Source: an uncultured bacterium (GTDB lineage Bacteria; Patescibacteriota; Minisyncoccia; Phycocordibacterales; DATDWN01). From it: 64,000 bases of DNA. Under the pieces are notes generated by a model. It was not told the DNA's origin and searched no databases. It worked only from the letters and a program-made list of their open reading frames with translations. This document shows positions 10,478 to 41,805 of this stretch, piece after piece. A program made the position numbers and the translations under genes. The stretch lies in NCBI GenBank assembly GCA_903861205.1, contig CAIOTC010000003.1, positions 7,964 through 71,963 of the forward strand, written 5' to 3'. The number at the start of each line of letters is the position of its first letter. Within the stretch, counting starts at the first letter, position 1.

Positions 10478-10625
10478 AACAATTTCCAAATAACAATTTC
10501 CAATTTCCAATAAATTTTTCAATATTCCAATGAATCAAATACAATTCTTTGGAATTTTTTGGAAATTGATCCATTGATTAATTCATTGAAAATTGTAAAT
10601 TGGAAATTGAAAATTATTAGTGCTA
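10478..10625. repeat. Family-C palindromic intergenic element (ttccaatttccaatgaat...attcattggaaattgaaaatt)
   Basis: Copies at ~13075-13210, 30720-30835, 31948-32040, 37080-37195. Confidence 0.6.
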
Positions 10626-11308: not shown

Positions 11309-12076
11309 ATGATTACAACAAAAACTTCTGAGGAAATCGAAATTTTGAAGGAAGGTGGTCATCGCCACGCTTTTATTTTAGGCGAGTTGGCCAAAAAAGC
11401 GGCGGTGGGAGTTTCGACACAGGAGTTGGAAGATTTGGCGCGTGAGCTGATAAAAGAAGGCGGGGGCACACCGGCTTTTTTGAATTACACTCCGCGTGGA
11501 GCCAAGCGGCCGTATCCGGCGGCGCTTAACGTTTCCATTAACGACGAAATTGTTCACGGTATTCCGAACGAAGATCCGAAAATTTTGCAGGACGGCGATG
11601 TTGTTTCGCTTGATCTGGGGCTTGTTCACCAAGGCATGATTACCGATAGCGCTATCACGGTTGGCGTTGGTGACATTTCCGAGGAAGACAGGAAAATGAT
11701 TTTGCATTGCCAGGAAGCGCTCTCGATTGGCATCAAAGCGGCTAGAGGTGGCGGCAAAGTGGGGGACATTAGCAGTGCCATTGAAGTTTTTGTACGACCT
11801 CTCGGTTACGGTATTCCTGACGGCTTGGCAGGCCACGGTGTCGGCTACAAGGTTCACGAGGAGCCATTTGTGCCTAACGAGGGGGCAAAGGGCAAAGGCG
11901 AGCTATTGCGTCCCGGTATGGTTCTGGCGATTGAGCCAATGATCACGCTTGGTTCCTCACGCATTGTCCTGTCCGGCGACGGTTACACCTACAAAACAGC
12001 CGATGGTTCGCGCGCCGCTCATTTCGAGCATACGATAGTGATCACGGATGGAGAAGCGATAATACTTACAAAATAA
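11309..12076 (+). CDS. map: Type I methionine aminopeptidase
   Basis: 255 aa; conserved metal-binding regions (DLGLVHQGM, HGVGY..HE). Confidence 0.95.
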   Translation: MITTKTSEEIEILKEGGHRHAFILGELAKKAAVGVSTQELEDLARELIKEGGGTPAFLNYTPRGAKRPYPAALNVSINDEIVHGIPNEDPKILQDGDVVSLDLGLVHQGMITDSAITVGVGDISEEDRKMILHCQEALSIGIKAARGGGKVGDISSAIEVFVRPLGYGIPDGLAGHGVGYKVHEEPFVPNEGAKGKGELLRPGMVLAIEPMITLGSSRIVLSGDGYTYKTADGSRAAHFEHTIVITDGEAIILTK

Positions 12077-12176
12077 TTTTCAATTTTTAATTTAGAATTT
12101 TTAATGAATATCTAAATTTTAAAATTTAATAATTGAAAATTCATTAAAAATTAAAAATTTTAAATTAAAAATTTAT

Positions 12177-12779
12177 ATGCATCCAAAATTTGAACGTACA
12201 CTTGTTATTATAAAACCCGATGGAGTACAGAGAAGTTTGATCGGCGAAATCATTGGCAGGTTTGAAAAGCTTGGCTTGAAAATGGTGGCAGCCAAAATGT
12301 GCGTGCCAACAGCAGAACATGTTGAAAAACATTACACTCTTGATCCCGAATGGCGCAGAATTACAGGAGAAAAAAGAGTCAAAGCGGCCAAAGAAAAAGG
12401 AGAAAAACTTGCGACGGAAGACCCTTTTGAAATTACAGCAAAAATTTTGGAAGTTTTGATAAAATACATGACATCAGGGCCAGTGGTAGCAATGGTTTGG
12501 CAGGGCGCGCACGCCACTGAATTGGTCAGAAAAATTGTCGGAGGCACGGAACCGCGAAGTTCTGATGTTGGCACAATTCGCGGAGATTATGTTCTTGATT
12601 CGTATGTAATGGCAGACACGGACAGCAGAGCTATCAGAAATCTAGTCCATGCTTCCGGCACAGCCAAAGAATCCGAGGCGGAAATAAAACACTGGTTTAA
12701 AGATGACGAAGTTCTCGACTACAAACTTGTTCAGGAATCTATTCTCTACGATGTAAACCTTGACGGCATATTTGAATAA
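12177..12779 (+). CDS. ndk: Nucleoside diphosphate kinase (with a C-terminal extension)
   Basis: ERTLVIIKPDGVQRSLIGEIIGRFE; 200 aa versus the usual ~140. Confidence 0.9.
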   Translation: MHPKFERTLVIIKPDGVQRSLIGEIIGRFEKLGLKMVAAKMCVPTAEHVEKHYTLDPEWRRITGEKRVKAAKEKGEKLATEDPFEITAKILEVLIKYMTSGPVVAMVWQGAHATELVRKIVGGTEPRSSDVGTIRGDYVLDSYVMADTDSRAIRNLVHASGTAKESEAEIKHWFKDDEVLDYKLVQESILYDVNLDGIFE

Positions 12780-15485: not shown

Positions 15486-15597
15486 TATACGAATATGCGA
15501 ATAAATACCAATCTACGAATGGCTACGAATGGGAACGTGATGTTTTGAATTATTCGCATTCATTCGCATCATTCGTCCATTCGCATATTCGTATGTT
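15486..15597. repeat. MITE-like 112-bp element with 16-bp terminal inverted repeats (atacgaatatgcgaat...attcgcatattcgtat), copy 1
   Basis: 100% identical to copy 2 at 15793-15904; tacgaat-family motifs. Confidence 0.6.
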
Positions 15598-15785
15598 TAA
15601 CTTTTAATATAAAACGCTCTATCCTTATTGCTAATCGGCCACTCGGCGCTGCGATTTTTGGCCATCTGATTTCTAGAACTTTCTTTCGTATTGAAATGAT
15701 TTTGACCGGTTCTGCGGGCAATGATTTTGCCGTTCTTGGTCACTTTCAATCGTTTGGTAAATGATTTGTTTGTTTTTGTTGACAT
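15597..15785 (-). CDS. rpmI: 50S ribosomal protein L35
   Basis: 62 aa lysine/arginine-rich, L35-like; infC-rpmI-rplT order. Confidence 0.9.
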   Translation of the reverse strand: MSTKTNKSFTKRLKVTKNGKIIARRTGQNHFNTKESSRNQMAKNRSAEWPISNKDRAFYIKS

Positions 15786-15792
15786 GATGATA

Positions 15793-15904
15793 CGAATATG
15801 CGAATAAATACCAATCTACGAATGGCTACGAATGGGAACGTGATGTTTTGAATTATTCGCATTCATTCGCATCATTCGTCCATTCGCATATTCGTATGTT
15901 TAAC
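15793..15904. repeat. MITE-like 112-bp element, copy 2
   Basis: Identical to 15486-15597; lies between infC and rpmI. Confidence 0.6.
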
Positions 15905-16412
15905 TTGCTTTTTCAATTATTATACTTAATCCCTTTGGGCTTTTGACAGCCGGTCCGGTCACTTTGTACTCCTCGGTAATAAGTTTCAAAACTCTCTCCA
16001 TTCTTTCCTTGAGAAAGTTTATGTCCATATATTTTGTCCTGCCGGGAAGAAATAAGTCTACTTTGATGCGATGACCTTCCTTGAGCCACTCGGACGCTTT
16101 CTTGGCCTTGAGAGCCAAATCGTTGTCTCCCGTGCCGACCTTGACCTGGATATTCTTTATCTCTACCGTGTGAACCTTTGTTTTGGCCACCTTTTGCTTC
16201 TTGTTTTCAGCATACTGAAATTTACCATAATCCATGATTTTTGCAACCGGCGGAACGGCTTTGGGCGAAATCTCGATGAGGTCAAGCCCTGCCTCGCGCG
16301 CTTTTTGGATCGCTTCTTTGAGCGGCAAAACGCCGAGATTTTCGCCGTCCTCCATGATGACACGGAGTTCTGACGCCTGGATTTGGTTGTTTATTTTTAT
16401 TCTTTCTATCAA
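15900..16412 (-). CDS. infC: Translation initiation factor IF-3
   Basis: 170 aa, IF3 N- and C-domains (KINNQIQASELRVI..., VKVGTGDNDLALKAKKASEWL). Confidence 0.9.
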   Translation of the reverse strand: MIERIKINNQIQASELRVIMEDGENLGVLPLKEAIQKAREAGLDLIEISPKAVPPVAKIMDYGKFQYAENKKQKVAKTKVHTVEIKNIQVKVGTGDNDLALKAKKASEWLKEGHRIKVDLFLPGRTKYMDINFLKERMERVLKLITEEYKVTGPAVKSPKGLSIIIEKAS

Positions 16413-19033: not shown

Positions 19034-19422
19034 TGTGGAAGTGCCGACATTGAAGTCGGATGCAAAGAAAGAATTGAAATGGGTCTACAACGCTTAGTTT
19101 GTTTCAGGTTTTAGATCTTGCAGCTATAAAACAAACAAAACACTGCAAAATCGAGTCTCTATTTTTTAGAAAATTTTATGAGACAATAAAATTTTCGAAT
19201 CCGAATTTATTAGAACTACGTATCCCTATCGGATGTTGGGAAGGTAATCCTTTCTTACGCTCTCGCGTAGGAAAAAGCGAAATTGTTTGCCGTAAAATAC
19301 GGAGAAACAGTTGCTCGTTTAGTTAAGTTGTTTACACTTAGCTTTCCGGACTGTTTTAGAAGGATCCGGTACTTCGCGTCGCGCATGACAATGTGCAATC
19401 TATGTCAAAACCTGTCACCCCC
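19034..19422 (-). ncRNA. ssrA: tmRNA (SsrA), ~387 nt; proposed tag ANNFAFSYARA
   Basis: - strand 5' GGGGGUGACAGGUUUUGACAUAG...; 3' T-arm CCGACUUCAAUGUCGG; acceptor CACUUCC pairs with GGGGGUG including G3:U70; resume GCA at 19290, stop UAA at 19257-19255; immediately downstream of smpB. Confidence 0.7.
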
Positions 19423-19556
19423 ATACTAAAATACAATTTAAAATTTTTAATTTAGAATTTAAAATTAATTTAAAAATTGAATCATTGAAAATTCAATAAA
19501 AATTAAAAATTTTAAATTAAAAATTATTCTTGCATTCTCGCATCAGAGTGCCAAAT

Positions 19557-20278: not shown

Positions 20279-20315
20279 TTCATTTTGTTAGTTTTAATGT
20301 ATACTATTGTCACTT

Positions 20316-22250
20316 ATGGCCCAGGAAAATCCCAAAAAACCGACCAAGCCAGGTCTCAAAAAAACGCCCAACAAAAAGCCGGAATCGGAGGGCGGTTCTT
20401 TGGTCAGCTATATTTTGACCATTCTCATCATTTTTATCCTGCTTTCGTCGGCTTATTCTTTCTTTTCAAACAGAGCCAAACCGGCACAAAATATTTCTCT
20501 TTCACAAGTTGCCGCCGATATTGGATCCGGTTCGATTACTTCCATTTCGGTTTCCGGCGATGATTTGAGTTTGACGTACAAAAACGGCGATGTGAAGAAT
20601 TCTAAAAAGGAGCCGGGCGAAGCGTTGTCGCAAACACTGGTCAACTACGGCGTCGGCATGGCCCAGATTGCCAAAATAAATATTGATATCAAAAATGAAA
20701 ATGGTCTTGGCTACTGGATTTTGAATTTGTCGCCGATTATTATTCCACTTTTGTTCATTTTGGTTTTCATCTGGTTCATCACGCGCCAAGTCAGGGGAGC
20801 GGGCATGCAGGCGCTGACATTTGGACAATCCAAAGCGCGCATGATCGATCCGAACGACAGCTCGCAACGTGTGACATTTAAAGACGTAGCCGGAGCCAAG
20901 GAGGCCAAGGAAGAACTTTCCGAGATTGTTGATTTTTTGCGCAATCCGAAAAAATTTCTGGACATTGGCGCGAGAATTCCAAAAGGCATCTTGCTCATGG
21001 GCGCTCCTGGCACGGGGAAAACTTTGCTGGCTCGGGCGGTTGCGGGCGAGGCTGGTGTAGCTTTCTTTTCTATTTCCGGATCGGAATTCGTGGAAATGTT
21101 TGTCGGTGTCGGTGCCTCGCGCGTGCGGGATTTGTTCCTGATGGCCAAAAAAACCGCTCCGGCTATTATTTTTGTTGATGAAATCGATGCGGTCGGGCGA
21201 GTGCGCGGTGTCGGTGCTGGCGGGGGAAACGACGAACGCGAGCAAACGCTCAACCAGATTTTGGTGGAGATGGACGGCTTCGAGCCGAATGAAAAAGTGA
21301 TCGTTATGGCGGCCACCAACCGGCCGGACGTGCTCGACCCCGCGCTCTTGCGTCCGGGCAGATTTGACAGGCGAGTGACTTTGGAACTTCCGGACAGGGC
21401 TGATCGCGAAGAAATTTTGAAAGTGCACTCGACCAAAAAACCGTTGGCCGAGGACGTTAATTTGACCGTCATTGCCGAGCGCACGCCTGGATTTTCCGGC
21501 GCCGATTTGTACTCGCTCATGAACGAGGGCGCTATTTTGGCCGCTCGCGAAAACCGCCAAAAAGTTTCGCAATACGACCTCATTCGTTCGATCGAAAAAG
21601 TGATGCTTGGTCCGGAACGCAAGAGTCACATCCTCTCCAAAAAAGAAAAAGAAATCACCGCTTTCCACGAGGCCGGGCATGCCGTGCTGGCCTCCATTTT
21701 GCCATATGCCGATCCGGTTCACAAAATTTCAATAATTTCACGCGGACATGCTGCCGGTTACGTTTTGAAGTTGCCCCTTGAGGATCGCAAGTTGCAATCC
21801 AAAAAAGAATTTCTGGACGATATTGCGGTTTCTCTCGGTGGTTATGTAACAGAGAAAATGCTTTTTGATGATTTGACCACTGGACCGTCGAATGACCTGC
21901 AAGTTTCAACCGCGTTGGCTCGCGATATGGTGACCAAATACGGCATGTCGGACAAACTCGGACCTGTGGCTCTCGAAGGGCAGGGTGGAAAAGTTTTGTT
22001 TGGCCGAGGTGTGGAAGAAAACGAATACTCGGAAAAAGTTGCCATGGATATTGACGGCGAAGTTTCGCGCATCATGAAGGAGGCGGAAACGAAGGCAATA
22101 AACACCATCACTGAAAATCGCAAACTGCTGGATGCCATCGCGCATCGCCTGACCGAAAAAGAAACCATCGAACGCGCCGAATTCGAAACCATTTTGGTGG
22201 CGCATGGCATCACGCCAAAGCAAAAACTCGACATTGAGCACAGCGGCTAG
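20316..22250 (+). CDS. ftsH: ATP-dependent zinc metalloprotease FtsH
   Basis: Two N-terminal TM segments, AAA+ Walker [15 protein letters not shown] zinc motif; ATG 20316 (TTG 20307 also possible). Confidence 0.95.
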
Positions 22251-22645: not shown

Positions 22646-22694
22646 AGTTTAAAAACACCAGGTGTTTGAATTCCAACACCTGGTGTTTAAAAAT
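22646..22694. terminator. Bidirectional hairpin (aaaaacaccaggtgtt-tgaattcc-aacacctggtgttt)
   Basis: 14-bp perfect inverted repeat between the tRNA (+) and a convergent - strand gene; contains the CACCNGGTG motif. Confidence 0.4.
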
Positions 22695-23542
22695 TATCTC
22701 GGAAATTCGTCCAACAGTTCGCTCGAATTGTAAAACTGGGCGGCGAGGGCGCCGAAGCTGTATGTTTTGTCGCCGAGCGTGATTGCTGCGCCGCCGGATT
22801 GCGGTGAGGCGTTTGGTTTGGAGCCGGCAAAGCCGATGTTGTAAAGTGTTGACAAAATTTCCGGTCGATTGGAAATGTCAAAACCGGCCGATTTCCACTG
22901 TGTTTCAATTTCTTTCAAATACAGACCAGCGTACAGATAGCTGTAATAGTGATCGTGTTGGTCGGTCATTCTAGTAAACCTTTCTTGCTTCACCAAGGTG
23001 TCACCTTGGTGGGAAAAATTCAGGAGATTTTCAAATTGCGGGCCGAGATAATATTGCGAGGTTACATCTTTCAAATTTTTTTCGATTTGAATTGCCGTGT
23101 CCTCCTTGGTGCCCATCACGCCCCAGGAAAATTGCGTTTGACTGCCGAGAATTTTAAGCGGTTCAAAAAACTTTTTGAACGATTCACGATCGGTGTAAAA
23201 AAATCGAAGTTGTTCTACGACCAGCTGGGCCACGATCAGGCGAGCGGGAACACCAGCCGTGATGGCCGCTCTGTTGATTGTCGGTTGATCTTTCAAAATG
23301 GCGTTTTTGAGCGTTTGCCATTCCGATCCGGAGTTCCAAAAATAATTTTCGTTTGCCCTAGGGGTTGCCTCGGGCGAACTTGTTGTTGATGAGTTTGCGT
23401 TTGCCAGAAAACTTTCTCGTTGCGTGTCGATTATCCCGCTCGTGTTTGTCCAACCGAATTTGATCGCAAAATATCCGGCCACCAGCACAAATCCGATGGC
23501 GGCAAAAATGTAAAGGAAAATGTTAAAAACTTTTTTGTACAT
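22694..23542 (-). CDS. Hypothetical membrane-anchored protein
   Basis: Start MYKKVFNIFLYIFAAIGFV (TM), internal to ORF 22694..23566. Confidence 0.45.
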   Translation of the reverse strand: MYKKVFNIFLYIFAAIGFVLVAGYFAIKFGWTNTSGIIDTQRESFLANANSSTTSSPEATPRANENYFWNSGSEWQTLKNAILKDQPTINRAAITAGVPARLIVAQLVVEQLRFFYTDRESFKKFFEPLKILGSQTQFSWGVMGTKEDTAIQIEKNLKDVTSQYYLGPQFENLLNFSHQGDTLVKQERFTRMTDQHDHYYSYLYAGLYLKEIETQWKSAGFDISNRPEILSTLYNIGFAGSKPNASPQSGGAAITLGDKTYSFGALAAQFYNSSELLDEFPR

Positions 23543-23549
23543 TTGGTTT

Positions 23550-23620
23550 TTGTCATTCCCGCGCATGCGGGAATCTAGGTCTGGATCCCCGCATACGCGA
23601 GGATGACAGAATTACTTTGA
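23550..23620. repeat. GC-rich double-hairpin palindromic repeat (gtcattcccgcgcatgcgggaat ... atccccgcatacgcgaggatgac)
   Basis: Same family as 11238-11300. Confidence 0.45.
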
Positions 23621-23980: not shown

Positions 23981-26197
23981 CTATTCAAAATGTATCGCGT
24001 TTGTTTGGTCAGATATCCGCTCCGCAAGGCACGGGTATTTTTTTAGGTTTGGGTCGGACTCGATAATTTGCGTCGCTTCCAGACGCGCAGCCTCCACCAT
24101 TTTAATATTTTTGATGGCTTCCATGGCCAGGTCGGAGATGCCCCATTGTTTTCGTCCGTAAAGTTCGCCAGCGCCACGCTGGGCCAGGTCGAACTCGGCC
24201 AGCTCAAAACCGTTTTTGGCCGTGGTTAGAGCTTTCAGACGTGCGCGAGTTTTTTCACTTTTGCTTTCGGTGAAAACGAAACAATAGGCTTGATGATTCG
24301 AGCGGATGACGCGACCGCGAAGCTGATGCAGTTGCGACAAACCGAAACGCTCGGCGCCCTCGATGATAATCATGGTGGCGTTCGGCACATTGACACCAAC
24401 TTCCACCACCGATGTGGCCACTAGAATATCGATTTTCTTCTCGGCGAAATTTTGCATCGTTTTTTCTTTTTCGGCCGGAGTCATTTTGCTGTGCAGAATG
24501 GCGATGTTCCATTTTTGAAAAACATCTTTTTTGAGATGCTCGGCTTCGAGTTTGACCGATTTGGCGATGACAGCAAGCTCTTTTGTCGGATCCGGTTCGT
24601 CGATTCGCGGGCAGATGATATAAAGTTGTCGGCCGTTTTCGAGCTCTTGCGAAATTTCGTTGTAAGTTTTTTCACGCTCGGTCGGCAAAATAATTTTGGT
24701 GATAATCGGCTTGCGACCGACGGGCATTTGGTCGAGCAAAGTCAAATCCAAATCTCCGTAAATAGTGAGCGACAATGTACGGGGGATTGGCGTGGCAGTC
24801 ATGGTTAGTAAATGTGGAGCGACGCCGGATTTTGTGGTTAGCTTTTGACGTTGAGCTGTGCCGAAACGGTGTTGCTCGTCAATAACAACGAAAGCCAGAT
24901 GTTTGAAAGCGACGGATTTATAAATCAAAGCATGTGTGCCGATCAAAATTGGAACCTCGCCGTTGGCCACCCACTTCAAAAGCTGAGCGCGCGAAATGTG
25001 TGTCGGTTTGGTTTTGTCTGATTTTGACGGGAATATCTGGCAGCCACTGCCCGTAATCAGGCCGATTTTAATTGGCAGGTGTTTGAAATATCCGATGAAA
25101 TTTTCGTAATGTTGTTTGGCCAGAATTTCTGTCGGCGCCATGTAGGCCACTTGTAAATTGCCGAAATCTTGGCCGTTTGGTCGGCTTGTCGCTACAGCGA
25201 AAGCACAGGTCGCCGCCACTGCTGTTTTGCCGCTTCCGACGTCGCCTTCGAGAAGTCGTGACATAGGATGACCTTTTTTGAAATCGGTCAAAATGGTTTC
25301 GATTGATTTTTTCTGGGCTTCTGTCGGGGTGAATGGAAATCGTGAAATGAATTCATCGATAGATTTTTTGTCGGCGGTGACTGTAAAACTTTTTTCACTT
25401 TGCCATATTTTTTTGTCGCGTTGTTTTTGAAGCTGGATGAAAAAAATTTCCTCGAAAGCGAATCTTTTTCGCGCCGACTCGGCGTCTCGCGTATTTTTCG
25501 GCGTATGAATCCAAATAAGCGCTGTTTTCAAACACGGCAAATTGTATTTTTCCAAAATTTCGGCCGGAATTGGATCCTCCAAATTAGCAAGAACTGTTCT
25601 TGCTAAACTATCACCACGGAAGATTTTCTCGATGGCGTGATAAATCCAATTCGACGTGACGCCGGCCGACTCCGGATAGACTGGATACAAACTGTGTTCG
25701 TCGCCGCTCTCTCCAAACAAACTTTTGCCGACGCCGACGGGAATGGAGCGTGCAACCTCAACTTTTGGATTTGAAAAATATAGCTCTGATTTTCTCTCCG
25801 CCACTTTTCCTTGCACGCGCACCGTCGCGCCTTCGTGGAGCATTTTGGCAATATATGGCTGATGGAACCAAACAATTTTTATTTTTCCAGTTTCATCGGA
25901 CAGCGTGGCGTCAGCCATCGGAATTCTACTGCGGAAACCCTTACTTGTTTTCAGTCCCGTGACAGTACCGAAAACCGTCGCTTCCTCGCCGACGGCAAGC
26001 GAGTCAATGTATTTTATTTCCTTGGTATCGCCATATCGCACCGGAAAATGATACAGCAAATCCCGCACGGTTTTCAGCCCCAGCTTATCCAGTGCCTTCT
26101 TATGCGCCGGCAGTATTCGCAGGATGTCCGAAAGTGGCGAGTTCAAATTCATGGCTTCATTATGGGCTGTTTTGGGGAAAATAAAAAGTGCTTGCAA
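23981..26197 (-). CDS. recG: ATP-dependent DNA helicase RecG
   Basis: 738 aa; wedge domain plus SF2 helicase motifs (GDVGSGKT, DEQHRFG, TATPIPRTL); carries an in-frame REP palindrome at 25584-25606. Confidence 0.9.
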   Translation of the reverse strand: MQALFIFPKTAHNEAMNLNSPLSDILRILPAHKKALDKLGLKTVRDLLYHFPVRYGDTKEIKYIDSLAVGEEATVFGTVTGLKTSKGFRSRIPMADATLSDETGKIKIVWFHQPYIAKMLHEGATVRVQGKVAERKSELYFSNPKVEVARSIPVGVGKSLFGESGDEHSLYPVYPESAGVTSNWIYHAIEKIFRGDSLARTVLANLEDPIPAEILEKYNLPCLKTALIWIHTPKNTRDAESARKRFAFEEIFFIQLQKQRDKKIWQSEKSFTVTADKKSIDEFISRFPFTPTEAQKKSIETILTDFKKGHPMSRLLEGDVGSGKTAVAATCAFAVATSRPNGQDFGNLQVAYMAPTEILAKQHYENFIGYFKHLPIKIGLITGSGCQIFPSKSDKTKPTHISRAQLLKWVANGEVPILIGTHALIYKSVAFKHLAFVVIDEQHRFGTAQRQKLTTKSGVAPHLLTMTATPIPRTLSLTIYGDLDLTLLDQMPVGRKPIITKIILPTEREKTYNEISQELENGRQLYIICPRIDEPDPTKELAVIAKSVKLEAEHLKKDVFQKWNIAILHSKMTPAEKEKTMQNFAEKKIDILVATSVVEVGVNVPNATMIIIEGAERFGLSQLHQLRGRVIRSNHQAYCFVFTESKSEKTRARLKALTTAKNGFELAEFDLAQRGAGELYGRKQWGISDLAMEAIKNIKMVEAARLEATQIIESDPNLKKYPCLAERISDQTNAIHFE
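25584..25606. repeat. REP palindrome (ttagcaagaactgttcttgctaa), in-frame inside recG
   Basis: Perfect palindrome; encodes LARTVLA within the RecG reading frame. Confidence 0.6.
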
Positions 26198-26235
26198 AAT
26201 TAAAACAAATGTGATTTAATAAATGTGGAGGTTTT

Positions 26236-26529
26236 ATGAGCGATGTTCGTATTCCATTTCACGAGGCGGTGATAGGTGTACTCCATAACGCATCCGGTTT
26301 CGGTCTAGTGACGGTAGGTGAACTTTTGTGTAAAACGGTAATACCAAAAAATCACGACAAGATTATGTGGGCATGGGAGAGACGTTGTCAGGACACAAAT
26401 TTCAATCCGCTCACGAGACAACTCGTCATTGACTCAATCGTAAGAAACAAAAAGGAAATCGAGGAGAAAGAAGAGAAAAATAAAAATCCTCTCGATCGAT
26501 TTCGACTTGAAGATGAAAAACACGCCTGA
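26236..26529 (+). CDS. Hypothetical protein
   Basis: 97 aa ORF with a charged C-terminus. Confidence 0.3.
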   Translation: MSDVRIPFHEAVIGVLHNASGFGLVTVGELLCKTVIPKNHDKIMWAWERRCQDTNFNPLTRQLVIDSIVRNKKEIEEKEEKNKNPLDRFRLEDEKHA

Positions 26530-26743
26530 CCGAAGAACAGGGGCGGCACTATCCTATGGGACGTGTCGCTTTTTCTTTTGAAAAGCAAAATAAAAAATTA
26601 CCACTAAGCAAATTTTGTCGAGCCGACACTTTTACGGCGCATTGCGGAATGCGTGAAGACATGAGCAGGAAGAAAAATCGCAGCAGCGATTTATTCTGGC
26701 GACGGAAAAGTGTTGGGTCGTAAGAAATTTGTGATATCGGTTC

Positions 26744-26790
26744 GCTCACACCCGGTGATCACGTTGCTGCGCCGTGGACACCAGGTGAGA
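26744..26790 (-). repeat. Copy of the ~46-nt conserved element tcacctggtgtc(a/c)acggcg(a/c)agcaacgt(t/g)atcaccgggtgtg
   Basis: ~90% identical to 38423-38468 (+); two ACCnGGT half-palindromes. Confidence 0.45.
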
Positions 26791-26798
26791 GCTTCATA

Positions 26799-27494
26799 TT
26801 ACCCAATGAGAGCTCCACGCAAACTCGCCGGATTCTTTCCGTCCCAGGAGATTTCGCCGGTCAAAACTTTTTCGGTGATGATCGGCTGCCATTTGTGTTC
26901 TGTCTCGAGGACGCGCGCGGCAAGCGTGTCGGCTGTGTCGTCGGGAAGAATTGGCACAGATTGTGAAAAGAAAAGCGGACCTTCGTCGTATTTTTCGGTG
27001 ACGAAATGCATTGAAACGGCCGAGTGAGTTATTTTTTCGCAAGAACTGTTCTTGCGAAAGTTGTGATATGCTTCCATGACCGCTTCGTGGACGTGGTGGC
27101 CATACATGCCGGCGCCGCCGAAACGGGGGAGCGGTCCAGGGTGAATGTTGATCGTTTTTTGAGGATCCAAACCGGTGACCAGTTTGAGCCAGCCCGAAAG
27201 GCAAACCAAATCCGCGTCGGCGACAATTTTTCTGTAATTTTCCGCCGTGCCGAATTCCGGTCCAGTTTCTCCATCAACGGGTTTGCGCGCGGGGAAGTAA
27301 ATAAATTTCACACCCAATCTGTCGGCGCGCTGTCTCACCCCGCCGTTTTCGTGATTGGAGACCACGGCCAAAATTTCGGCATTCAAAATTCCATTTCGTG
27401 AAGCATTCACCAAATTTTCAAACCCGCTACCTCCGCCGTCTTTTGTGCCGGAAGCGAAAATGATGATTTTCTTTTTTGTATCATTCGTAGTCAT
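26799..27494 (-). CDS. purN: Phosphoribosylglycinamide formyltransferase-like (PurN family)
   Basis: IIIFASGTKDGGGSGFENL and NIHPGPLPRFGGAGMYGHHVHEAV formyltransferase motifs; in-frame REP palindrome at 27035-27059. Confidence 0.65.
   Translation of the reverse strand: MTTNDTKKKIIIFASGTKDGGGSGFENLVNASRNGILNAEILAVVSNHENGGVRQRADRLGVKFIYFPARKPVDGETGPEFGTAENYRKIVADADLVCLSGWLKLVTGLDPQKTINIHPGPLPRFGGAGMYGHHVHEAVMEAYHNFRKNSSCEKITHSAVSMHFVTEKYDEGPLFFSQSVPILPDDTADTLAARVLETEHKWQPIITEKVLTGEISWDGKNPASLRGALIG
27035..27059. repeat. REP palindrome variant (tttcgcaagaactgttcttgcgaaa), in-frame inside the purN-like gene
   Basis: Perfect palindrome; encodes FRKNSSCEK. Confidence 0.55.
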
Positions 27495-30676: not shown

Positions 30677-30835
30677 GAAGATATTATACAATGAGTGAAT
30701 ATGGTATACTATATTAATAATTTTCAAGTAACAATTTCCAATTTTCAATAAATGAATCAATTTTTCAATTGGACAATTGGTTCATTGAGAAATTCATTGG
30801 AAATTGAAAATTGCTAATTGGAAATTTTTTCAAAA

Positions 30836-31945
30836 ATGCCCCAATTTCTCTCAGACATCATCGAAAAATTTTTCGGCAAAAATGGCGGCAGCGTTCTCGG
30901 CGTTGACATTGGTTCGTCGTCCATCAAAGTGGTTCAGTTGCGCCGTCAAAAGGGAAGAGCGATCCTCGAAACGTATGGCGAATTGGCGCTCGGACCATAC
31001 GCCGGCAGCAATGTTGGCCAATCCACCAATTTGCCGGTTGAAAAAGTGGTCGAGGCTTTAAGAGACATTCTGGCTGAAAAAGAAGTCAATCTGACCACCA
31101 GAAATTGCGGTGTGGCCATTCCTTTCGCCTCATCTCTCATGTCGGTCATCGAAATGCCGGCGGTTCCATTCAAGGAGCTTTCCCAAATGGTGCCGATTGA
31201 AGCCAGAAAATACGTGCCTGTAGCCATTTCGGAAGTTTCGCTGGACTGGTCGGTCATCCCGCAGGACAGAGACGAAAGAGACGACAAAAACGCTCCGGCC
31301 AAAACGGAAGTCTTGCTGGTGGCCATTCACAACAACACCATCGAAAAATATTCGGAAATTGTCACCAAAAGCGGCCTCAGTAGCACATTTTTCGAGATTG
31401 AAATTTTCAGCACCATGCGATCCATTTTGGATCAGGAAGTTGTGCCGGTCATGATCCTCGACATGGGCGCCACTTCGACCAAACTCTACATCATCGAACG
31501 CGGAATTTTGCGCTCGTCGCACACCATCAATCGCGGAGGTCAGAGCGTGACAATGTCGCTGTCCAAATCTCTCGGCATTTCCATGCAGGAGGCCGAGGTG
31601 ATGAAGCGCGAAAAAGGTTTGCCCGGCGAAGCGAGCGGAATTGGGCTGAAAGATGTCATTGTGGTGACGCTTGATTTCATTTTCTCCGAAGCCAATCAAG
31701 TCGTTTTGGCTTACCAGAAAAAATACAACAAAAATATCAGCAAGGTCTTTCTGGTCGGCGGGGGAAGCGCACTGAAAGGCCTCGAGGAAGTGGCCAAGAA
31801 AAGTTTCCAGACCGAAGTGGTTTGCGGAAATCCGTTTGGCAAGGTGGTGGCGCCGGCTTTTTTGGAGGATGTGCTGAAAACGACCGGACCGGAATTTGCC
31901 GTGGCAGTGGGAGTGGCGCTGCGCAAAATGCAAGAGTCGGAATAA
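30836..31945 (+). CDS. pilM: Type IV pilus assembly protein PilM (actin-like ATPase)
   Basis: LGVDIGSSSIKVVQL N-terminal motif; heads the pilMNO cluster. Confidence 0.8.
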   Translation: MPQFLSDIIEKFFGKNGGSVLGVDIGSSSIKVVQLRRQKGRAILETYGELALGPYAGSNVGQSTNLPVEKVVEALRDILAEKEVNLTTRNCGVAIPFASSLMSVIEMPAVPFKELSQMVPIEARKYVPVAISEVSLDWSVIPQDRDERDDKNAPAKTEVLLVAIHNNTIEKYSEIVTKSGLSSTFFEIEIFSTMRSILDQEVVPVMILDMGATSTKLYIIERGILRSSHTINRGGQSVTMSLSKSLGISMQEAEVMKREKGLPGEASGIGLKDVIVVTLDFIFSEANQVVLAYQKKYNKNISKVFLVGGGSALKGLEEVAKKSFQTEVVCGNPFGKVVAPAFLEDVLKTTGPEFAVAVGVALRKMQESE

Positions 31946-32177
31946 TTTCCAATTTTCAATTTCCAATGAATTTTTCAATTGGACAATTGGCTCATTGAGA
32001 AATTCATTGGAAATTGAAAATTGCTACTTGAAATTTTTTGTGTATAACTTGCATAGTTTTTTGTTTTAACTTGCTGTATAATTTACATGAGTAAAAATAA
32101 TTTAAAATTTAAAAATTTGTCATTCAAAATTCATTTTAAATTTTAAATTCTAAATTTTAAATTAAAAATTTTTTTCC

Positions 32178-35501: not shown

Positions 35502-35906
35502 ATGACCGAAGAAAAAATTTTAGACAAAAAAATAACAATCATGCTTGTTGACGATGATCGTTTCCTTCTAGACATGTATTCGATCAAGTTCAAGTCCAGT
35601 GGTTTTGATATCGAGACTATTTCCGGAAGCGCCGATGCTTTGACCAAACTGCGCGCCGGAGCCAAACCGGATGTTATTCTGCTCGATATTATTATGCCGA
35701 ATATGGACGGTTTGGAACTTCTCAAGACTATCAGGGATGAAAAATTGGCCGAAACTTCGGTTGTTATCATGCTGACCAACCAACCGGACGAAATGGAAAA
35801 AGCTCAGGCTCTCGGTGCCGACGGTTACATCGTCAAGGCGGTTAATATTCCGTCGGAAGTGGTGAATAAGGTGATAGAAATATATAAAAGCAAAAAAGCA
35901 AAATAA
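35502..35906 (+). CDS. CheY-like response-regulator receiver domain protein
   Basis: IMLVDDD...DVILLDIIMPNMDG...GADGYIVKA. Confidence 0.8.
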   Translation: MTEEKILDKKITIMLVDDDRFLLDMYSIKFKSSGFDIETISGSADALTKLRAGAKPDVILLDIIMPNMDGLELLKTIRDEKLAETSVVIMLTNQPDEMEKAQALGADGYIVKAVNIPSEVVNKVIEIYKSKKAK

Positions 35907-36009
35907 ATTTTCAATTTAAAATTTAGAATTTTTAATGAATGTCTAAATTTAAAAATTTAATCATTGAAAATTCAATAAAAATTAAAAATTAAAAATTTTA
36001 AATTATATT

Positions 36010-37077: not shown

Positions 37078-37197
37078 GGACAAATTTTCAAGTAACAATT
37101 TCCAATTTCCAATGAATTTCTCAATGAACCAATTGTCCAATTGAAGAATTGATTCATTTATTGGAAATTGGAAATTGATAATTATTTTTTATTCATG

Positions 37198-38400
37198 TTA
37201 TATTCTTACACTGCCATCACTCAAACGGGACAGAAAACTCAAGGCACCATTGAGGCGGTTTCGACCGATGTCGGCATCAGCGTTTTGCAAAAAAGGGGAT
37301 TGGTTATTCTGCAGATTCAGGCGCCGCAGGCCGAAAAAGATTTTTCGATAAACCTGCCGTTTTTCAATAAAATTTCCAACAAGGAAGTGGTCGTTTTGTC
37401 CCGTCAAATGGCCACGCTTTTCCAGGCCCAAGTTTCGGCCTTGCGTGTTTTTCGTCTCCTCGGCGAGCAAGTGGAAAATAAAACCCTCCAGAAATACATG
37501 TTCGACATTGCCGACGATTTGCAGGGCGGCAGTTCCATTTCCAATGCTCTGTCGCGTCACCCGGACGTTTTTTCCGATTTTTACGTCAACATGGTCAAGG
37601 CCGGCGAGGAATCCGGCAAGCTCGACGAGACTTTCAACTATCTGGCTGATTATCTGGATCGGACTTACGCCATTGTTTCCAAAACCAAAAACGCCTTAGT
37701 CTATCCGGCTTTCGTCGTCGTCACTTTCGTCGGCGTGATGATTCTCATGTTCACGGTTATTATTCCGAAAATCAGCTTGATGTTGACCGATTCCGGCCAG
37801 GAAATTCCGATTTACACCAAAATCGTTTTGGCTATCAGCAGTCTTTTGATCAATCACGGCATACTTTTGGCCATTGCAGTCATTATCATCGGATATTTCT
37901 TGGTCAGATATGGCCGGACAGAGGAAGGCGCGCTATATTATGACGATTTGAAAATAAAAACGCCGTACATCGGCAATTTGTACCGCAAACTGTACCTGTC
38001 GCGCATTGCCGACAACCTCAACACCATGATTACCTCCGGCATTCCCATTTTGCGAGCGCTGGAAATCACCTCGGCCGTCGTCGACAATCGCGTTTACAAA
38101 AATATTTTAAACGACGCCATAAATGGGGTTAAAGGGGGAGATGCGCTGTCAACCGTGCTTTCCAAATATCCGGAAATGCCCGGCATCATGGTCCAAATGA
38201 CCAAAGTCGGCGAGGAAACAGGCGAGCTGGGCAGTATTCTCAAAACCTTGGCCAAGTTCTACGAGCGTGAAGTGATCGATGCTGTTGACACGCTGGTTGG
38301 CCTCATCGAGCCGGTCATGATTGTGGCTCTGGGTTTGGGGGTGGGCATACTTTTGGCATCAGTTCTTATGCCAATCTATAACATCGCCGGCGGAATGTAG
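37198..38400 (+). CDS. pilC: Type IV pilus platform protein PilC (GspF family)
   Basis: ~400 aa with duplicated GspF domains and TM segments. Confidence 0.85.
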   Translation, partial: LYSYTAITQTGQKTQGTIEAVSTDVGISVLQKRGLVILQIQAPQAEKDFSINLPFFNKISNKEVVVLSRQMATLFQAQVSALRVFRLLGEQVENKTLQKYMFDIADDLQGGSSISNALSRHPDVFSDFYVNMVKAGEESGKLDETFNYLADYLDRTYAIVSKTKNALVYPAFVVVTFVGVMILMFTVIIPKISLMLTDSGQEIPIYTKIVLAISSLLINHGILLAIAVIIIGYFLVRYGRTEEGALYYDDLKIKTPYIGNLYRKLYLSRIADNLNTMITSGIPILRALEITSAVVDNRVYKNILNDAINGVKGGDALSTVLSKYPEMPGIMVQMTKVGEETGELGSILKTLAKFYEREVIDAVDTLVGLIEPVMIVALGLGVGILLASVLMPIYNIAGGM

Positions 38401-38570: not shown

Positions 38571-39059
38571 ATGAAAAAATCTGTCAGCGGTTTTACCCTC
38601 ATCGAGTTACTTGTTGTCATTGCGATCATCTCGCTCATCTCCTCTGTCATTTTGGCAGCTCTTAATTCGGCAAGAACTAAAGGTATAGATTCTTTAATAA
38701 AAGCAAACCTAAATACCATCATCAAACAAACCGAAATAGTTTTTGACGCAAATAATGGTAGTTATCTTAGTCCAAATTCTATTTGTTATAACACAACAAT
38801 TAGAAATGCCATGCAATCCAGTTCTCAGGCGTCTGCCGGGTATGATCTTATAACGAATGATTATAAAAGAGATTTTAATTGTGGAAATTTTGGTAAGTAT
38901 TGGGCAGTGGTAATAAAAATGAAAGGTTTAAACGGTTGCCCCGCTGCTTCATGGATATGCGCTGATAATAGCGTTGATCCTGCCGCTCCCGCCAAAGTCC
39001 CAGGAACTTACGAGATCATATGTAATCAACCCGGAGTGAGTATTTCCGTATGCCCATAG
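38571..39059 (+). CDS. Type IV pilin (class III signal GFTLIELLVVIAII)
   Basis: Prepilin leader plus hydrophobic N-helix; C-terminal Cys pair. Confidence 0.8.
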   Translation: MKKSVSGFTLIELLVVIAIISLISSVILAALNSARTKGIDSLIKANLNTIIKQTEIVFDANNGSYLSPNSICYNTTIRNAMQSSSQASAGYDLITNDYKRDFNCGNFGKYWAVVIKMKGLNGCPAASWICADNSVDPAAPAKVPGTYEIICNQPGVSISVCP

Positions 39060-39203
39060 AATTATCCACAGTGCCCCTTTTCACCGCTTGCATATAACCG
39101 TATAATAGATGTACTAGTTTAATAGATGAATTCTCTGAAAAAGAGGCGGTCGAGCTAGAAAATTTATTTACAAGAATTTATTAATAAAATTATCAATTAA
39201 TAT

Positions 39204-39695
39204 ATGAAATATATGAAAAGAGGTTTTACGCTTATTGAATTGCTCGTGGTTATCGCCATCATCGGTATTCTTTCATCAGTTGTTTTGGCTAGTTTGAACA
39301 CTGCTCGAAACAAGGGTGCTGATGCCGCTATCAAGTCAAACTTGGCAAATGCTCGCGCACAAGCAGAGATTTTCTATGATACTAACGGTCAGACTTACGA
39401 TGCTGGTACAGCTGCCACTGATGTTTGTAACACAGCAGCATCAGTCGGTAACCCGGCTGTAAAAGGTGTATTTGCAAATGTTCAGGCTGCAGCTACAACC
39501 GCAGGGGCGGGTACTGCGCTTACAGACACGGCAGAAACAACAACAAACGCAGTGTGTAATAGTTCTGCTACTGGATGGGCCGCAGCAGTTCCCCTAAAGG
39601 GAGGTGGACAGTGGTGTGTTGACAGCACAGGAAAGTCAGTACCGGAGGTAGCTGCAAACCTGTTGGCACCAGCTGCAACAGTGGCTTGCCCATAG
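39204..39695 (+). CDS. pilA: Type IV major pilin-like (PilA paralog 1)
   Basis: MKYMKRGFTLIELLVVIAIIGILSSVVLASLNTARNKGADAAIKSNLANARAQAEIFYD; C-terminal WCVDSTG...C. Confidence 0.8.
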   Translation: MKYMKRGFTLIELLVVIAIIGILSSVVLASLNTARNKGADAAIKSNLANARAQAEIFYDTNGQTYDAGTAATDVCNTAASVGNPAVKGVFANVQAAATTAGAGTALTDTAETTTNAVCNSSATGWAAAVPLKGGGQWCVDSTGKSVPEVAANLLAPAATVACP

Positions 39696-39725
39696 TACTT
39701 GATTATGTTTTAGTTTTAGATTCAG

Positions 39726-39752
39726 AAAAACCGGCCTTGGCCGGTTTTTCGT
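39726..39752 (+). terminator. Rho-independent terminator (aaaaaccggccttggccggttttt)
   Basis: Perfect 8-bp stem plus T-run. Confidence 0.55.
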
Positions 39753-39850
39753 TTATTTGAGTTATCAACACCTCACGTTTGTATTGTCTTTTTATGTTGT
39801 ATAATATATCCATAACTTTATAAGTTTTAAATTATTAGTTTATTAAACAT

Positions 39851-40339
39851 ATGAATAAGACAAATCGAGGTTTTACGCTTATTGAATTACTCGTGGTTAT
39901 CGCCATCATCGCACTTCTGTCGTCGGTTGTTCTGGCATCACTTAACTCAGCCAGGAATAAGGGTGCTGATGCAGCTATCAAATCAAACTTGGCAAATGCT
40001 CGCGCACAAGCGGAGATTTTCTATGATGCAAATGGAAGTTCTTATATGGGTACTATTAACACAGCTACCGATGTATGTAACACAGCCGCTTCAGTTAATG
40101 GAGTAAAGGGTATTTATCCAAATGTTCTTGCGGCGATACAAGTAAGTCAGGGTTCTGGTGGTGCTCTAGTCGCTGAAAATGCGGTAGAAACTGGCACAAC
40201 TGCCTCGTGCAACCCCGCTTCAGGTACTTGGGTCGCTCAGGCCCCTTTAAAAAGTGCGGGTTTTTGGTGTGTTGACAGTACGGGCGCTTCTGTTCCTGAA
40301 GCAGCTGTATTACCTATCAACGCGACCAAGTGTCAGTAA
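39851..40339 (+). CDS. Type IV pilin (PilA paralog 2)
   Basis: N-terminal ~60 aa near-identical to 39204 gene. Confidence 0.8.
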   Translation: MNKTNRGFTLIELLVVIAIIALLSSVVLASLNSARNKGADAAIKSNLANARAQAEIFYDANGSSYMGTINTATDVCNTAASVNGVKGIYPNVLAAIQVSQGSGGALVAENAVETGTTASCNPASGTWVAQAPLKSAGFWCVDSTGASVPEAAVLPINATKCQ

Positions 40340-40492
40340 AATACTTGGATAGTTTTAAAAACCGCTCTCCTCAAGGGGGTGGTTTTTGTATGTAAAGTTA
40401 TCAACAAGCTCTAATTTTGTTTATTTTTTTAAGTTGTATAATGAAATCACAAGGTCCAAATTGTCACTTAATTCTTATTAGGTTTTAATTTT

Positions 40493-40918
40493 ATGAAAAA
40501 CATTAAAAGAGGTTTTACGCTTATTGAATTACTCGTGGTTATCGCCATTATCGGTATTCTTTCCGCGGTTGTTTTAGCGAGTTTAAATACAGCTCGAGAT
40601 AAAGGTGCTGACGCAGCTATAAAAGGAGATTTGGATGGTATCCGTGCTCAAGCGCAAATAGTTTACGAGGATAATTCAAATGATTATACCAATGTTTGTA
40701 TAGATCAGACTGTTATTGCTGCTGTAACTGGCGCACTTACAGCCGGAACAGATCTAGGGGCATTAGCTGACAGATGCCACTCCGACACCGACCATTGGAA
40801 CGCTTGGGCCACGCTCAAAACCGACACTGCCCAAATGTGGTGCGTGGACAACACCGGCACATCGCGCCAAGGCCCCGTCGCCTCCGCCCCCACCGACCCC
40901 CTCACCCCTTGCCCATAA
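40493..40918 (+). CDS. Type IV pilin (PilA paralog 3)
   Basis: Same leader and N-helix; WCVDNTG motif. Confidence 0.8.
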   Translation: MKNIKRGFTLIELLVVIAIIGILSAVVLASLNTARDKGADAAIKGDLDGIRAQAQIVYEDNSNDYTNVCIDQTVIAAVTGALTAGTDLGALADRCHSDTDHWNAWATLKTDTAQMWCVDNTGTSRQGPVASAPTDPLTPCP

Positions 40919-40938
40919 ATTAAAGTTATCACCTTCAA

Positions 40939-40965
40939 CCCTAGCAAGAACAGTTCTTGCTAGGG
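40939..40965. repeat. REP palindrome (ccctagcaagaacagttcttgctaggg), 27-nt perfect
   Basis: Immediately upstream of the RAYT gene. Confidence 0.65.
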
Positions 40966-40985
40966 TTTGTATATGTTGATATAAT

Positions 40986-41687
40986 TTGCGTATGTTACGA
41001 AAAGACCCATTTGTTACTGGTGAATACTACCATTTATATAATCGTGGTATCGATAAGAGGATTATATTTAAATTAAAAAGAGATTACGAGAGGTTTATGG
41101 TTCTTTTGTACCTTGCAAATTCGGACGAATCTTTCCGCCTCGATAATTTAATAAGCATACAGCATAAAACATTTGATGAAATTTTGGTTTTAGATAAAGG
41201 TGAGCCCCTAGTTTCCATTGGAGTGTGGTGCATAATGGAGAATCACTTTCATTTGGTGGTAAGACAAGAAGTGGATGGGGGAATCACTCAGTTTATGAGA
41301 AAGCTTGGTGTTGGATATTCAATGTTTTTTAATATTAAGTATCAAAGAAAAGGTGCCCTATTCGGGGGACCTTTTAAATCAAAATTTATTGGGGATGATG
41401 ATTACATGCGGCAACTTTTTGGATATATTCATCTGAATCCTTTAGAAATAAAATTTCCAGATTGGAAAAACACCCTAGCAAGAACAGTTCTTGCTAGATC
41501 TGATGATATGAAAAAATTTCTGGAAGAGTATGGGTATTCGAGCTATTTGGATTATCTTGGAAGAGATAGAGCAGAAAAAAACATTCTCAGCACCAAAAAC
41601 TTTCCGGATTATTTTGGCGAGCAACAATCCTTCAGGAATTTTGTGGACGATTATCTAGCCGAGGGTCTATTTGAAGATGATAAATAA
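40986..41687 (+). CDS. REP-associated tyrosine transposase (RAYT; IS200/IS605-like HuH Y1 transposase)
   Basis: HuH motif NHFHLVV and catalytic-Tyr motif YIHLNPLE; flanked by REP palindromes and contains one. Confidence 0.7.
   Translation: MRMLRKDPFVTGEYYHLYNRGIDKRIIFKLKRDYERFMVLLYLANSDESFRLDNLISIQHKTFDEILVLDKGEPLVSIGVWCIMENHFHLVVRQEVDGGITQFMRKLGVGYSMFFNIKYQRKGALFGGPFKSKFIGDDDYMRQLFGYIHLNPLEIKFPDWKNTLARTVLARSDDMKKFLEEYGYSSYLDYLGRDRAEKNILSTKNFPDYFGEQQSFRNFVDDYLAEGLFEDDK
41473..41497. repeat. REP palindrome inside the RAYT gene (encodes LARTVLA)
   Basis: ccctagcaagaacagttcttgctag. Confidence 0.6.
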
Positions 41688-41699
41688 TTTTAGCAAGTT

Positions 41700-41722: not shown

Positions 41723-41805
41723 ATTCTTGGTGTTATTACCAGATTTGTTTTAATTCAGATGCCTTCGCAGTATAATTAGCGTATGGACTTTCATAATGCA
41801 CTGAC

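Follow-up and report, generated by a model that had tools for sequence, protein, structure and literature searches.

How does one short palindrome come to lie both beside a transposase gene and, in frame, inside conserved protein-coding genes? The question is raised by a stretch of DNA from an uncultured bacterium of the Patescibacteriota (contig CAIOTC010000003.1, positions 7,964 to 71,963; the whole 64-kb stretch is referred to here as the window). In this stretch, repetitive extragenic palindromes (REPs) accompany a gene for a REP-associated tyrosine transposase (RAYT)-like protein and also lie within recG, within a purN-like gene and within the RAYT-like gene itself. The reading that we prefer, and to which we assign a probability of roughly 0.7, is that these palindromes are the REP family of a conserved Paceibacteria RAYT-like transposase and have spread at the DNA level into permissive loops of coding sequence.

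Repeat family and copies in the window

The window was searched with the pattern GCAAGAACTGTTCTTGC, exactly or with one mismatch. A 17-nt core, GCAAGAAC[A/T]GTTCTTGC, is found at five sites (25587-25603, 27039-27055, 40944-40960, 41478-41494 and 41703-41719). The chance expectation is 0.25 sites (dinucleotide shuffles), and none of 100 shuffles matches the observed number; a single match with three mismatches is unrelated to the core family. Each copy extends to a perfect palindrome, 23-31 nt long and centred on one base. Two copies bracket the RAYT-like gene, one upstream (40937-40967, a 31-nt perfect palindrome, AACCCTAGCAAGAAC-A-GTTCTTGCTAGGGTT) and one downstream (41699-41723, TTTAGCAAGAAC-T-GTTCTTGCTAAA). 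The other three are intragenic: one in recG (25584-25606, arms TTAGCAAGAAC-T-GTTCTTGCTAA, minus-strand reading S-LARTVLA-N), one in the PurN-like gene (27035-27059, arms TTTCGCAAGAAC-T-GTTCTTGCGAAA, minus-strand reading FRKNSSCEK) and one in the RAYT-like open reading frame (ORF; 41475-41497, CTAGCAAGAAC-A-GTTCTTGCTAG, reading T-LARTVLA-R). Identity between copies reaches beyond the core. The recG copy and the RAYT-downstream copy share 24 identical nt and the RAYT-internal and RAYT-upstream copies share 26, in both cases including flanking bases that vary among the other copies.

All three intragenic copies keep the reading frame and none of the three ORFs is interrupted. The initial annotation, made from the letters of this stretch, is borne out on these points: it had placed the RAYT-flanking palindrome within recG and the purN-like gene, had found that no frame was broken and had reported a third copy encoding LARTVLA in the RAYT gene, with which the translation of 40992-41687 agrees. 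Identical RecG, PurN-like and Y1 proteins are encoded on 4-7 contigs of NCBI and ENA assemblies, which makes an assembly artefact unlikely. The organisms named for the homologues place this bacterium in the class Paceibacteria of the Patescibacteria, close to Zambryski- and Nomurabacteria. Judged by their sequence, the five palindromes form what appears to be a single REP family, of the GTAG-tagged type (NTAG-CAAGAAC-N-GTTCTTG-CTAN). As in other REP families, the unit is a short palindrome in many copies, with five in 64 kb and several in individual metagenome-assembled genomes (MAGs) of relatives.

A database scan for the core covered one genome per species (596 Gb); loci and proteins of relatives used for comparison carry L- and P-numbers, respectively. 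The core is multi-copy in Nomurabacteria, Paceibacteria and Saccharibacteria MAGs (for example, nine copies in three loci of one MAG), while lone matches in unrelated phyla occur at about the chance rate for 16 specified bases in 596 Gb. Copies in relatives usually have a short-ORF (intergenic) context, are often arranged as close pairs and are often GTAG-tagged (GTGTAGCAAGAAC...). GTAG precedes the core in L016, L070, L005, L066 and the downstream copy of L204; across the family the consensus is NTAG, and GTAG is a frequent form. The extragenic share is two of five copies in the window and most of the approximately 40 copies in relatives, a few of which lie inside Pfam-supported genes (AA_kinase in L060, the tail of G6PD in L072 and RAYT in L109).

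Six Saccharibacteria MAGs (L028, L032, L046, L052, L093 and L110) also contain the 17-nt core. One of them, L093, encodes a RAYT homologue with 68% identity that has a REP 11 nt past its stop codon, this downstream copy standing alone. With this gene and the Saccharibacteria cores, the REP/RAYT pair spans at least two Patescibacteria classes. Genome-specific REP variants were considered as proof of concerted evolution, an argument weakened by the coexistence of both core variants (GCAAGAAC and GCAAGGAC) in L004, L054 and L066.

RAYT-like gene and flanking REPs

The gene at 40992-41687 (plus strand) encodes a Y1 (HUH) tyrosine transposase of 231 aa. The protein scores 23.2 bits against Pfam Y1_Tnp (cut-off 23), and its sole NCBIfam family match is NF047646 (REP_Tyr_transpos; E-value: 4.5e-7; 29.9 bits, curated cut-off 80). 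As this score is under the cut-off, the protein is called RAYT-like and is regarded as a distant branch rather than an equivalog. The HUH motif and the tyrosine are both present: N84-H85-F86-H87 and Y145..N149 (YIHLNP, of the form YIHxNP) are invariant in 28 homologues. A YIxxNP motif is typical of RAYTs.

The genomic architecture is strongly RAYT-like. In the window, the core of the upstream REP ends 31 nt before the ATG and the downstream palindrome begins 12 nt past the stop codon. A REP is located 31-33 nt 5' of the RAYT start in eight gene copies at seven loci (the window, L204, L203, L051, L004, L054 and L066) and 2-62 nt 3' of the stop in six loci, a conserved arrangement in which the RAYT gene is flanked by REPs. 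With arms that are perfectly symmetric, a REP could show its orientation only by the centre base. Upstream and downstream centre bases are complementary in three of six loci (A/T in the window and L051, G/C in L204) and not complementary in L004, L054 and L066. An attempt to read orientation from the centre base was given up, the result being inconsistent across loci.

A Y1 gene with two hairpins could also be an ordinary IS200/IS605-type insertion sequence, the remaining palindromes being solo ends left behind by its movement. The Y1 transposase, the hairpin near each end and the two tandem copies in L066 are what such an element would show. On the other hand, the gene is present once in the 64-kb window and its best family match is to the RAYTs (NF047646). 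Homologues of the protein number more than 1,500, and the best of them, from many named candidate genera (Nomura-, Zambryski- and Staskawiczbacteria), are 70-78% identical, a pattern that fits a vertically kept gene better than a patchily distributed insertion sequence. There are far more repeats than copies of the gene, and the repeats come in close pairs, in the manner of REPINs. An ordinary insertion sequence is very improbable.

The copy inside the RAYT-like ORF reads ...KNTLARTVLARSDD... (KNT-LARTVLA-RSDD). It adds 4 aa to a variable loop after W158, giving W-KNTLARTVLARSDD-M where 118 of 120 homologues have W-KDKINKSSVD-M. A REP occupies this loop in the window, L203 and L109. Each of these three genes has closer relatives that lack the REP, and the three are not one another's closest relatives. 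In L203 the internal copy and the gene's own upstream REP share the core variant GCAAGGAC. Since the insertions lie at slightly different codons, they look like local hopping into a tolerant loop rather than insertion at a precise target. No target motif shared by the three insertion sites of the window was seen; the uninserted sequences are simply A-rich.

The L066 locus (5809-7106 of the Nomurabacteria MAG contig CALRET010000001.1) has two tandem RAYT genes. The first is ended early, at about residue 202, by a REP (..YQEGLARTVLATGF..*). This REP is also 30 nt 5' of the start of the second, full-length gene, whose post-W loop carries a 21-aa acidic insert. In the window, four tandem paralogous pilin-like genes (38571-40918; 141-163 aa, with an N-terminal methylation motif) lie directly upstream of the RAYT-like gene and its upstream REP. 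Their position raised the idea that the repeat is a DNA uptake sequence, which was dropped in view of the fixed spacing that links the repeat to the RAYT gene in many genomes.

Copies in recG and the PurN-like gene

The recG gene (23981-26152, minus strand) is intact and encodes 723 aa with the Pfam domains RecG_wedge, DEAD, Helicase_C and RecG_dom3_C. Around the repeat the protein reads ...GDSLARTVLANLED... (GDS-LARTVLA-NLED). The loop concerned has 10 aa (..KIF-SSGILDxIxD-PIP..) in most of approximately 50 distinct orthologous loci and 15 aa in the window. The five additional codons are limited to a small clade (the window, L200, L118 and L120) and are missing from the nearest outgroups, L116 and L121. 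In an alignment with Thermotoga maritima RecG (1GM5), the REP-encoded stretch falls between the wedge domain and the helicase domain. LARTVLA is absent from all other RecG homologues compared.

Between the codons GGT-GAT-[A/G]GT and TTG-GAG, the recG cassette is exactly 24 nt in the window, L118 and L200. The window cassette has 42-46% identity to those of L118 and L200 while the flanks are 82-87% identical; the L118 and L200 cassettes are 71% identical to each other. No palindrome is present at this site in L116 or L121. The event in the window thus looks like the replacement of an older 24-nt palindromic cassette rather than a simple insertion into naive sequence. As the recG copy is identical to the local RAYT-downstream REP at 24 of 24 positions, the older cassette would have been overwritten recently.

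The PurN-like formyltransferase gene (26799-27494, minus strand) is likewise intact (231 aa; Pfam Formyl_trans_N). Its product scores 92.7 bits against TIGR00639 (PurN), under the cut-off of 150, and matches 4ds3 in the PDB. Around the repeat it reads ...HNFRKNSSCEKITH... (HN-FRKNSSCEK-ITH). The ortholog alignment gives an ancestral ..EAYKKGEVTHS.. and ..EAYHNFRKNSSCEKITHS.. in the window, a gain of 7 aa. In an AlphaFold (AF2) model (predicted local distance difference test [pLDDT] 86), residues 146-154 cover the last turn of helix 133-148 and the loop that leads into strand 157-164, and the alignment to 4ds3 is gapped at the insert. RKNSSCE is absent from all other PurN homologues compared. 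The initial annotation had proposed such ortholog alignments, and had named the same residues in distant bacteria as the sign of a mere coincidence. In both proteins the REP-encoded residues are instead lineage-specific additions in variable loops, found in no other homologue.

The PurN site is occupied by different palindromes in related genomes: TTTCGCAAGAAC-A-GTTCTTGCGAAA in the window, TTTCGCAAGGAC-A-GTCCTTGCGAAA in L201, TTTCCCAAAGGA-AAC-TCCTTTGGGAAA in L200 and CCCCCAAGGGC-A-GCCCTTGGGAG in L202. L118 has no palindrome there. The window and L201 cassettes are identical at 23 of 25 nt (92%), compared with 76% for the whole genes, and the only two changes between them form one complementary pair, converting RKNSSCE to RKDSPCE. 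When sister genomes carry different perfect palindromes at one site, the simplest explanation is cassette replacement or conversion, or hairpin-templated repair. In the RecG and PurN loops, most of the differences between such palindromes are swaps of complementary base pairs.

Inserts that are not palindromic also occur at this helix-strand turn, in the proteins P0131, P0135, P0137, P0138 and P0172 and in L116, L205 and L206. They include PNPADGQR, PSNSSGQA, IDPKTGQK and STSSPQASSGQA, and the longest (L205) has several GCAAG motifs. Inserts of the types PSNSSGQ.., IDPKTGQK and PNPADGQR were considered as further palindromes and rejected, as they are not clean palindromes. The PurN loop is therefore a general hotspot for insertions and deletions rather than a site for REPs only.

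Reading frames and encoded peptides

All frames of every variant of the element were translated, on either strand. In its TAG-tagged form the element is open in the LARTVLA frame only, whichever strand is read; the other two frames stop at TAG or TAA in the tags. In the PurN-like gene copy, TCG/CGA stands in place of the TAG/CTA tags, and this change (TCG...CGA) removes the stop codons from the frame that encodes RKNSSCE. The RAYT copy of L109 is read in the third frame (KQELFLL), its TAG having become AAG. The two frames used in the window give the unrelated peptides LARTVLA and RKNSSCE, and orthologous cassettes encode further unrelated peptides (VSRMTFDT, MSKCLFDT, PKETPLG and PKGSPWE) yet stay palindromic. 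Conservation is at the DNA level, not at the peptide level. The peptide is carried along as a passenger; loss of the copies that contain stop codons accounts for the frame bias.

The initial annotation had stated that the palindrome yields the same peptide from either strand. This is true of the LARTVLA frame, in which ACT and ACA both encode threonine, and the claim is limited to that frame. Its two suggested explanations, tolerated loop insertions or selection for the encoded peptide, part company here. The first agrees with the lineage-specific additions of 5, 7 and 4 aa in variable loops, and the second is contradicted by the unrelated peptides and the stop-codon filter. If LARTVLA were kept by selection, with the palindrome as a by-product, its presence in RecG and in two RAYTs would be accounted for. 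The same peptide is nonetheless the sole stop-free product of the TAG-tagged element, the PurN-like and L109 RAYT copies are read in other frames (RKNSSCE and KQELFLL), and orthologous cassettes remain palindromic whatever they encode. Peptide selection is hardly credible on this evidence.

Formation and maintenance of the palindromes

Several observations weigh against spread of a REP family by a RAYT-like transposase. The mobility of these REPs is inferred. The protein scores far under the equivalog cut-off of 80 bits for NF047646, it has no sequence match in the PDB by single sequence or profile, and its AF2 model (pLDDT 40.7) is too poor for fold comparison. The tetranucleotide before CAAGAAC in the window copies is CTAG, TTAG or TTCG, not GTAG, and the 1-nt centre and perfect symmetry are unlike the imperfect enterobacterial REPs. 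Net length changes of +15, +21 and +12 nt at the recG, PurN-like and RAYT sites match no single, constant length of the element, and simple unit insertion is thereby not shown. A separate RecG clade has TGTCAAGG-N5-CCTTGACA at the same codons with no change in length, which in-situ formation fits as well as insertion does. Pairing statistics for recG come from ten orthologous palindromes that were chosen because they are palindromic; changes on both sides are seen in 7 of 12 stem pairs, and pairing is 84% versus 35-51% with the partners slid, figures of which only the paired changes carry weight in a set picked for palindromy.

Some of these points lead to another explanation, in which the palindromes formed in place by hairpin-templated replication errors (template-switch, quasi-palindrome-correcting) in unconstrained coding loops, and owe their resemblance to REPs to conversion from nearby REPs or to chance convergence. 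Perfect hairpins with a stem of at least 10 bp and a GC content of at least 0.35 number eight in the window versus 0.28 in dinucleotide shuffles, an excess of about 30-fold. Most have 1-nt centres, and this symmetry points to an origin at the DNA rather than the RNA level. Unrelated perfect palindromes are present in the LigA linker (47612-47649) and in a loop of the ORF at 22694-23566, and one RecG clade has its palindrome without a length change, as described above. The extra recG codons of L120 include GCGGAAAA, which is the reverse complement of the neighbouring conserved sequence TTTTCCGC on the upstream side, and cassette variants differ by complementary pairs and remain perfect. Template switching alone cannot, however, give the 24-26-nt identity between intragenic and RAYT-flanking copies, and it leaves unexplained a 17-nt core that is multi-copy across many Paceibacteria and Saccharibacteria MAGs. 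As a complete account it is unlikely. The L120 insert and the palindrome excess keep this mutational bias alive as at least a contributing process, and template switching may keep cassettes perfect after their arrival, partly complementing the spread of a REP family.

The intragenic hairpins could instead be selected sites, acting either as RNA hairpins (in mRNA stability or translation pausing) or as DNA sites at which the RAYT or another dimeric protein would bind and regulate repair genes such as recG. Palindromy is kept at the same loop across diverged orthologues at the expense of changes in the amino acids, and the PurN cassette is better conserved than its gene (92% versus 76%). The fixed 31-33-nt spacing suggests a regulatory role for the RAYT-upstream REP, and an excess of intragenic REPs in repair genes has been noted by Di Nocera et al. 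(PMC3733652). Against such sites, palindromes are lacking in the close relatives L116 and L121 (recG) and L118 (purN), the host genes are functionally unrelated and a 1-nt centre cannot form an RNA loop. No known RNA family in Rfam overlaps the palindromes. Selected sites are on balance improbable, and a regulatory role of the intragenic copies is possible but unsupported.

Proposed model

The proposed model for the spread of this REP family is as follows. A RAYT-like enzyme (putatively active in this way), or recombination between REP copies, would, acting on the DNA, spread or rewrite the hairpins. Where genes are packed densely, a copy would persist only if it lay in an intergenic gap or a permissive loop, and in the latter case only in a stop-free frame. 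For the TAG-tagged form this filter would yield LARTVLA, other frames becoming available only once the tags mutate, as in the PurN copy. Purifying selection would leave harmless placements only. An occupied loop would then stay palindromic through a DNA-level process, which may be cassette replacement, conversion or hairpin-templated repair.

A tentative and on balance unlikely extension of this model is that, in Paceibacteria, certain permissive loops of housekeeping proteins (those of RecG, the PurN-like protein and the RAYT, and perhaps the LigA linker) are long-lived docking sites for palindromic cassettes. Such sites might be overwritten again and again with the current REP variant of the genome, by a RAYT-dependent process or REP-to-REP conversion, or be kept perfect by hairpin-templated repair. 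If this were true, REP populations inside coding DNA would undergo concerted evolution, with the rewriting of protein loops as a by-product. We know of no previous description of cassette replacement at orthologous coding sites or of recurrent self-insertion into a RAYT ORF.

Other palindromes and repeats of the window

A 21-nt perfect palindrome with a REP-like design is located at 22991-23011, in the minus-strand ORF 22694-23566 (CAC-CAAGG-TGTCA-CCTTG-GTG; CACCAAGGTG-T-CACCTTGGTG). It reads HQGDTLV and adds 3 aa relative to the orthologues in L200, L116 and L118; the host is a conserved membrane-associated protein. The design NNN-CAAGR-N5-YCTTG-NNN is common to this palindrome and the REP, but the sequence is different and does not have the REP family core. 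Beside this site, orthologues read CAAGAAC (TCGCAAGAAC in L120), which resembles one half of a REP, perhaps by chance.

The ligA gene (45787-47865, plus strand) contains a 38-nt perfect palindrome (47612-47649) with 16-bp arms and a 6-nt loop. In the NAD-dependent DNA ligase LigA it codes for the linker KEDAPLGKEGHPL, which joins the HhH domain to the BRCT domain. This linker is no longer than that of Escherichia coli LigA, so that here, in another DNA-repair gene, a palindrome is present with no net insertion. A 61-nt perfect palindrome at 52604-52664 has 30-bp arms and a single-base centre and contains AAAAAACACCCAT/ATGGGTGTTTTTT. It precedes a tRNA gene (52708-52778) by 44 nt and has the look of a bidirectional terminator, although it is unusually long and perfect for one.

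Several other repeats were found. Intergenic repeats of about 100 nt, almost pure A+T, internally palindromic and unrelated to the REP (AATTTAAAATTT-type periodicity), are present in at least nine copies (2304-2417, 6804-6917, 7850-7963, 8539-8652, 9089-9202, 12065-12178, 19417-19530, 35896-36009 and others). An 87-nt intergenic element is present in four copies with 69-91% identity (824-910, 1846-1932, 2633-2719 and 48526-48612); it consists of tandem 9-nt AGTTGAATA/AGTTTAATA units followed by ...CTTATACAACTTATTAAACTAAAGCGAAGCGTAACTTATTAAACT, and each copy lies just 5' of an ORF. Intergenic repeats of 100-122 nt rich in AATTTCCAATTTCCAATGAAT (10481-10581, 30706-30827, 31929-32029 and 37082-37203) occur in both orientations and are up to 92% complementary. 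An exact 117-nt direct repeat is found at 15487-15603 and 15790-15906, the copies being 303 nt apart. In the close relative L118, an FtsH product (8111-9839) has intein and LAGLIDADG domains according to precomputed Pfam matches; no intein domain was seen in the FtsH of the window (20307-22250).

Relation to known systems

The closest published precedent is the survey of Di Nocera, De Gregorio and Rocco (2013, BMC Genomics 14:522; PMC3733652), in which GTAG and CGTC REPs lie in frame inside genes of several species, many of them replication and repair genes (uvrA, recBCD, dnaE, ligase). Most copies in that survey are intergenic, and functional constraint on the encoded residues was argued against (PMC3733652). 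The description of intragenic, frame-preserving REPs as unusual in the initial annotation was therefore overstated. As in the survey, the palindromes described here are short and RAYT-linked, a minority across genomes are in frame in genes including a repair gene (recG), and GTAG tags are found in relatives. The differences are that the survey is without Patescibacteria, that the window palindromes are perfect and of odd length with a 1-nt centre and that their tags are CTAG, TTAG or TTCG. A copy inside a RAYT ORF and differing palindromes at the same loops in sister genomes also set the present family apart. The published inserts are mostly dimers or grouped repeats that encode 20-30 aa (PMC3733652), whereas those of the window are singlets of 7-8 codons.

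Rickettsia palindromic elements (RPEs; Ogata et al. 2000), in the outline given in PMC3733652, are likewise in-frame palindromic inserts, at tolerated positions in ORFs that still encode functional proteins. The element in the window is 21-31 nt with a cognate RAYT-like gene, has only the in-frame behaviour in common with them and is not an RPE. Classic RPE-1 is roughly 100-150 bp and has no associated transposase gene.

The REPIN/RAYT systems of Pseudomonas and E. coli (Bertels and Rainey 2011, PMC3116915; Nunvar et al. 2010, PMC2817692) are similar in that a Y1 HUH gene is bracketed by repeats on which it presumably acts. They are also similar in that the gene is locally single-copy and, in the relatives studied here, the repeats often form close pairs. 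They differ in that the protein reported here is distant (29.9 bits against a cut-off of 80), its REPs are perfect palindromes whose orientation is unreadable and three of the five window copies are intragenic.

A resemblance of another kind is to quasi-palindrome mutagenesis, in which paired changes arise like those between the cassette variants described here, but which involves no dispersed identical family of 17-26 nt and no link to a RAYT gene. In E. coli genetics, such template switching makes and maintains perfect palindromes and produces paired complementary changes in one step.

Significance

The basic phenomenon of in-frame intragenic REPs is already published; the single-base view of palindrome turnover in conserved genes, the recurrent RAYT self-insertion and the 31-33-nt spacing of a REP before the RAYT start appear to be new. 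There is as yet no settled view of how REPs move and persist; intragenic copies are natural experiments of a rare kind on this question. Several sister genomes show, base by base, both the ancestral state (insert-free) and derived states (one set of codons occupied by different perfect palindromes). The models of insertion, conversion and in-situ hairpin-templated change are thereby made directly testable with metagenomic population data.

The findings also extend the REP/RAYT partnership to Patescibacteria; among the papers searched, none joins RAYTs with this group. These organisms have tiny genomes densely packed with genes, and the scarcity of space between the genes may explain the use of coding loops. 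When proteins of the candidate phyla radiation are annotated, a short loop insert specific to one lineage may be repeat-derived rather than adaptive.

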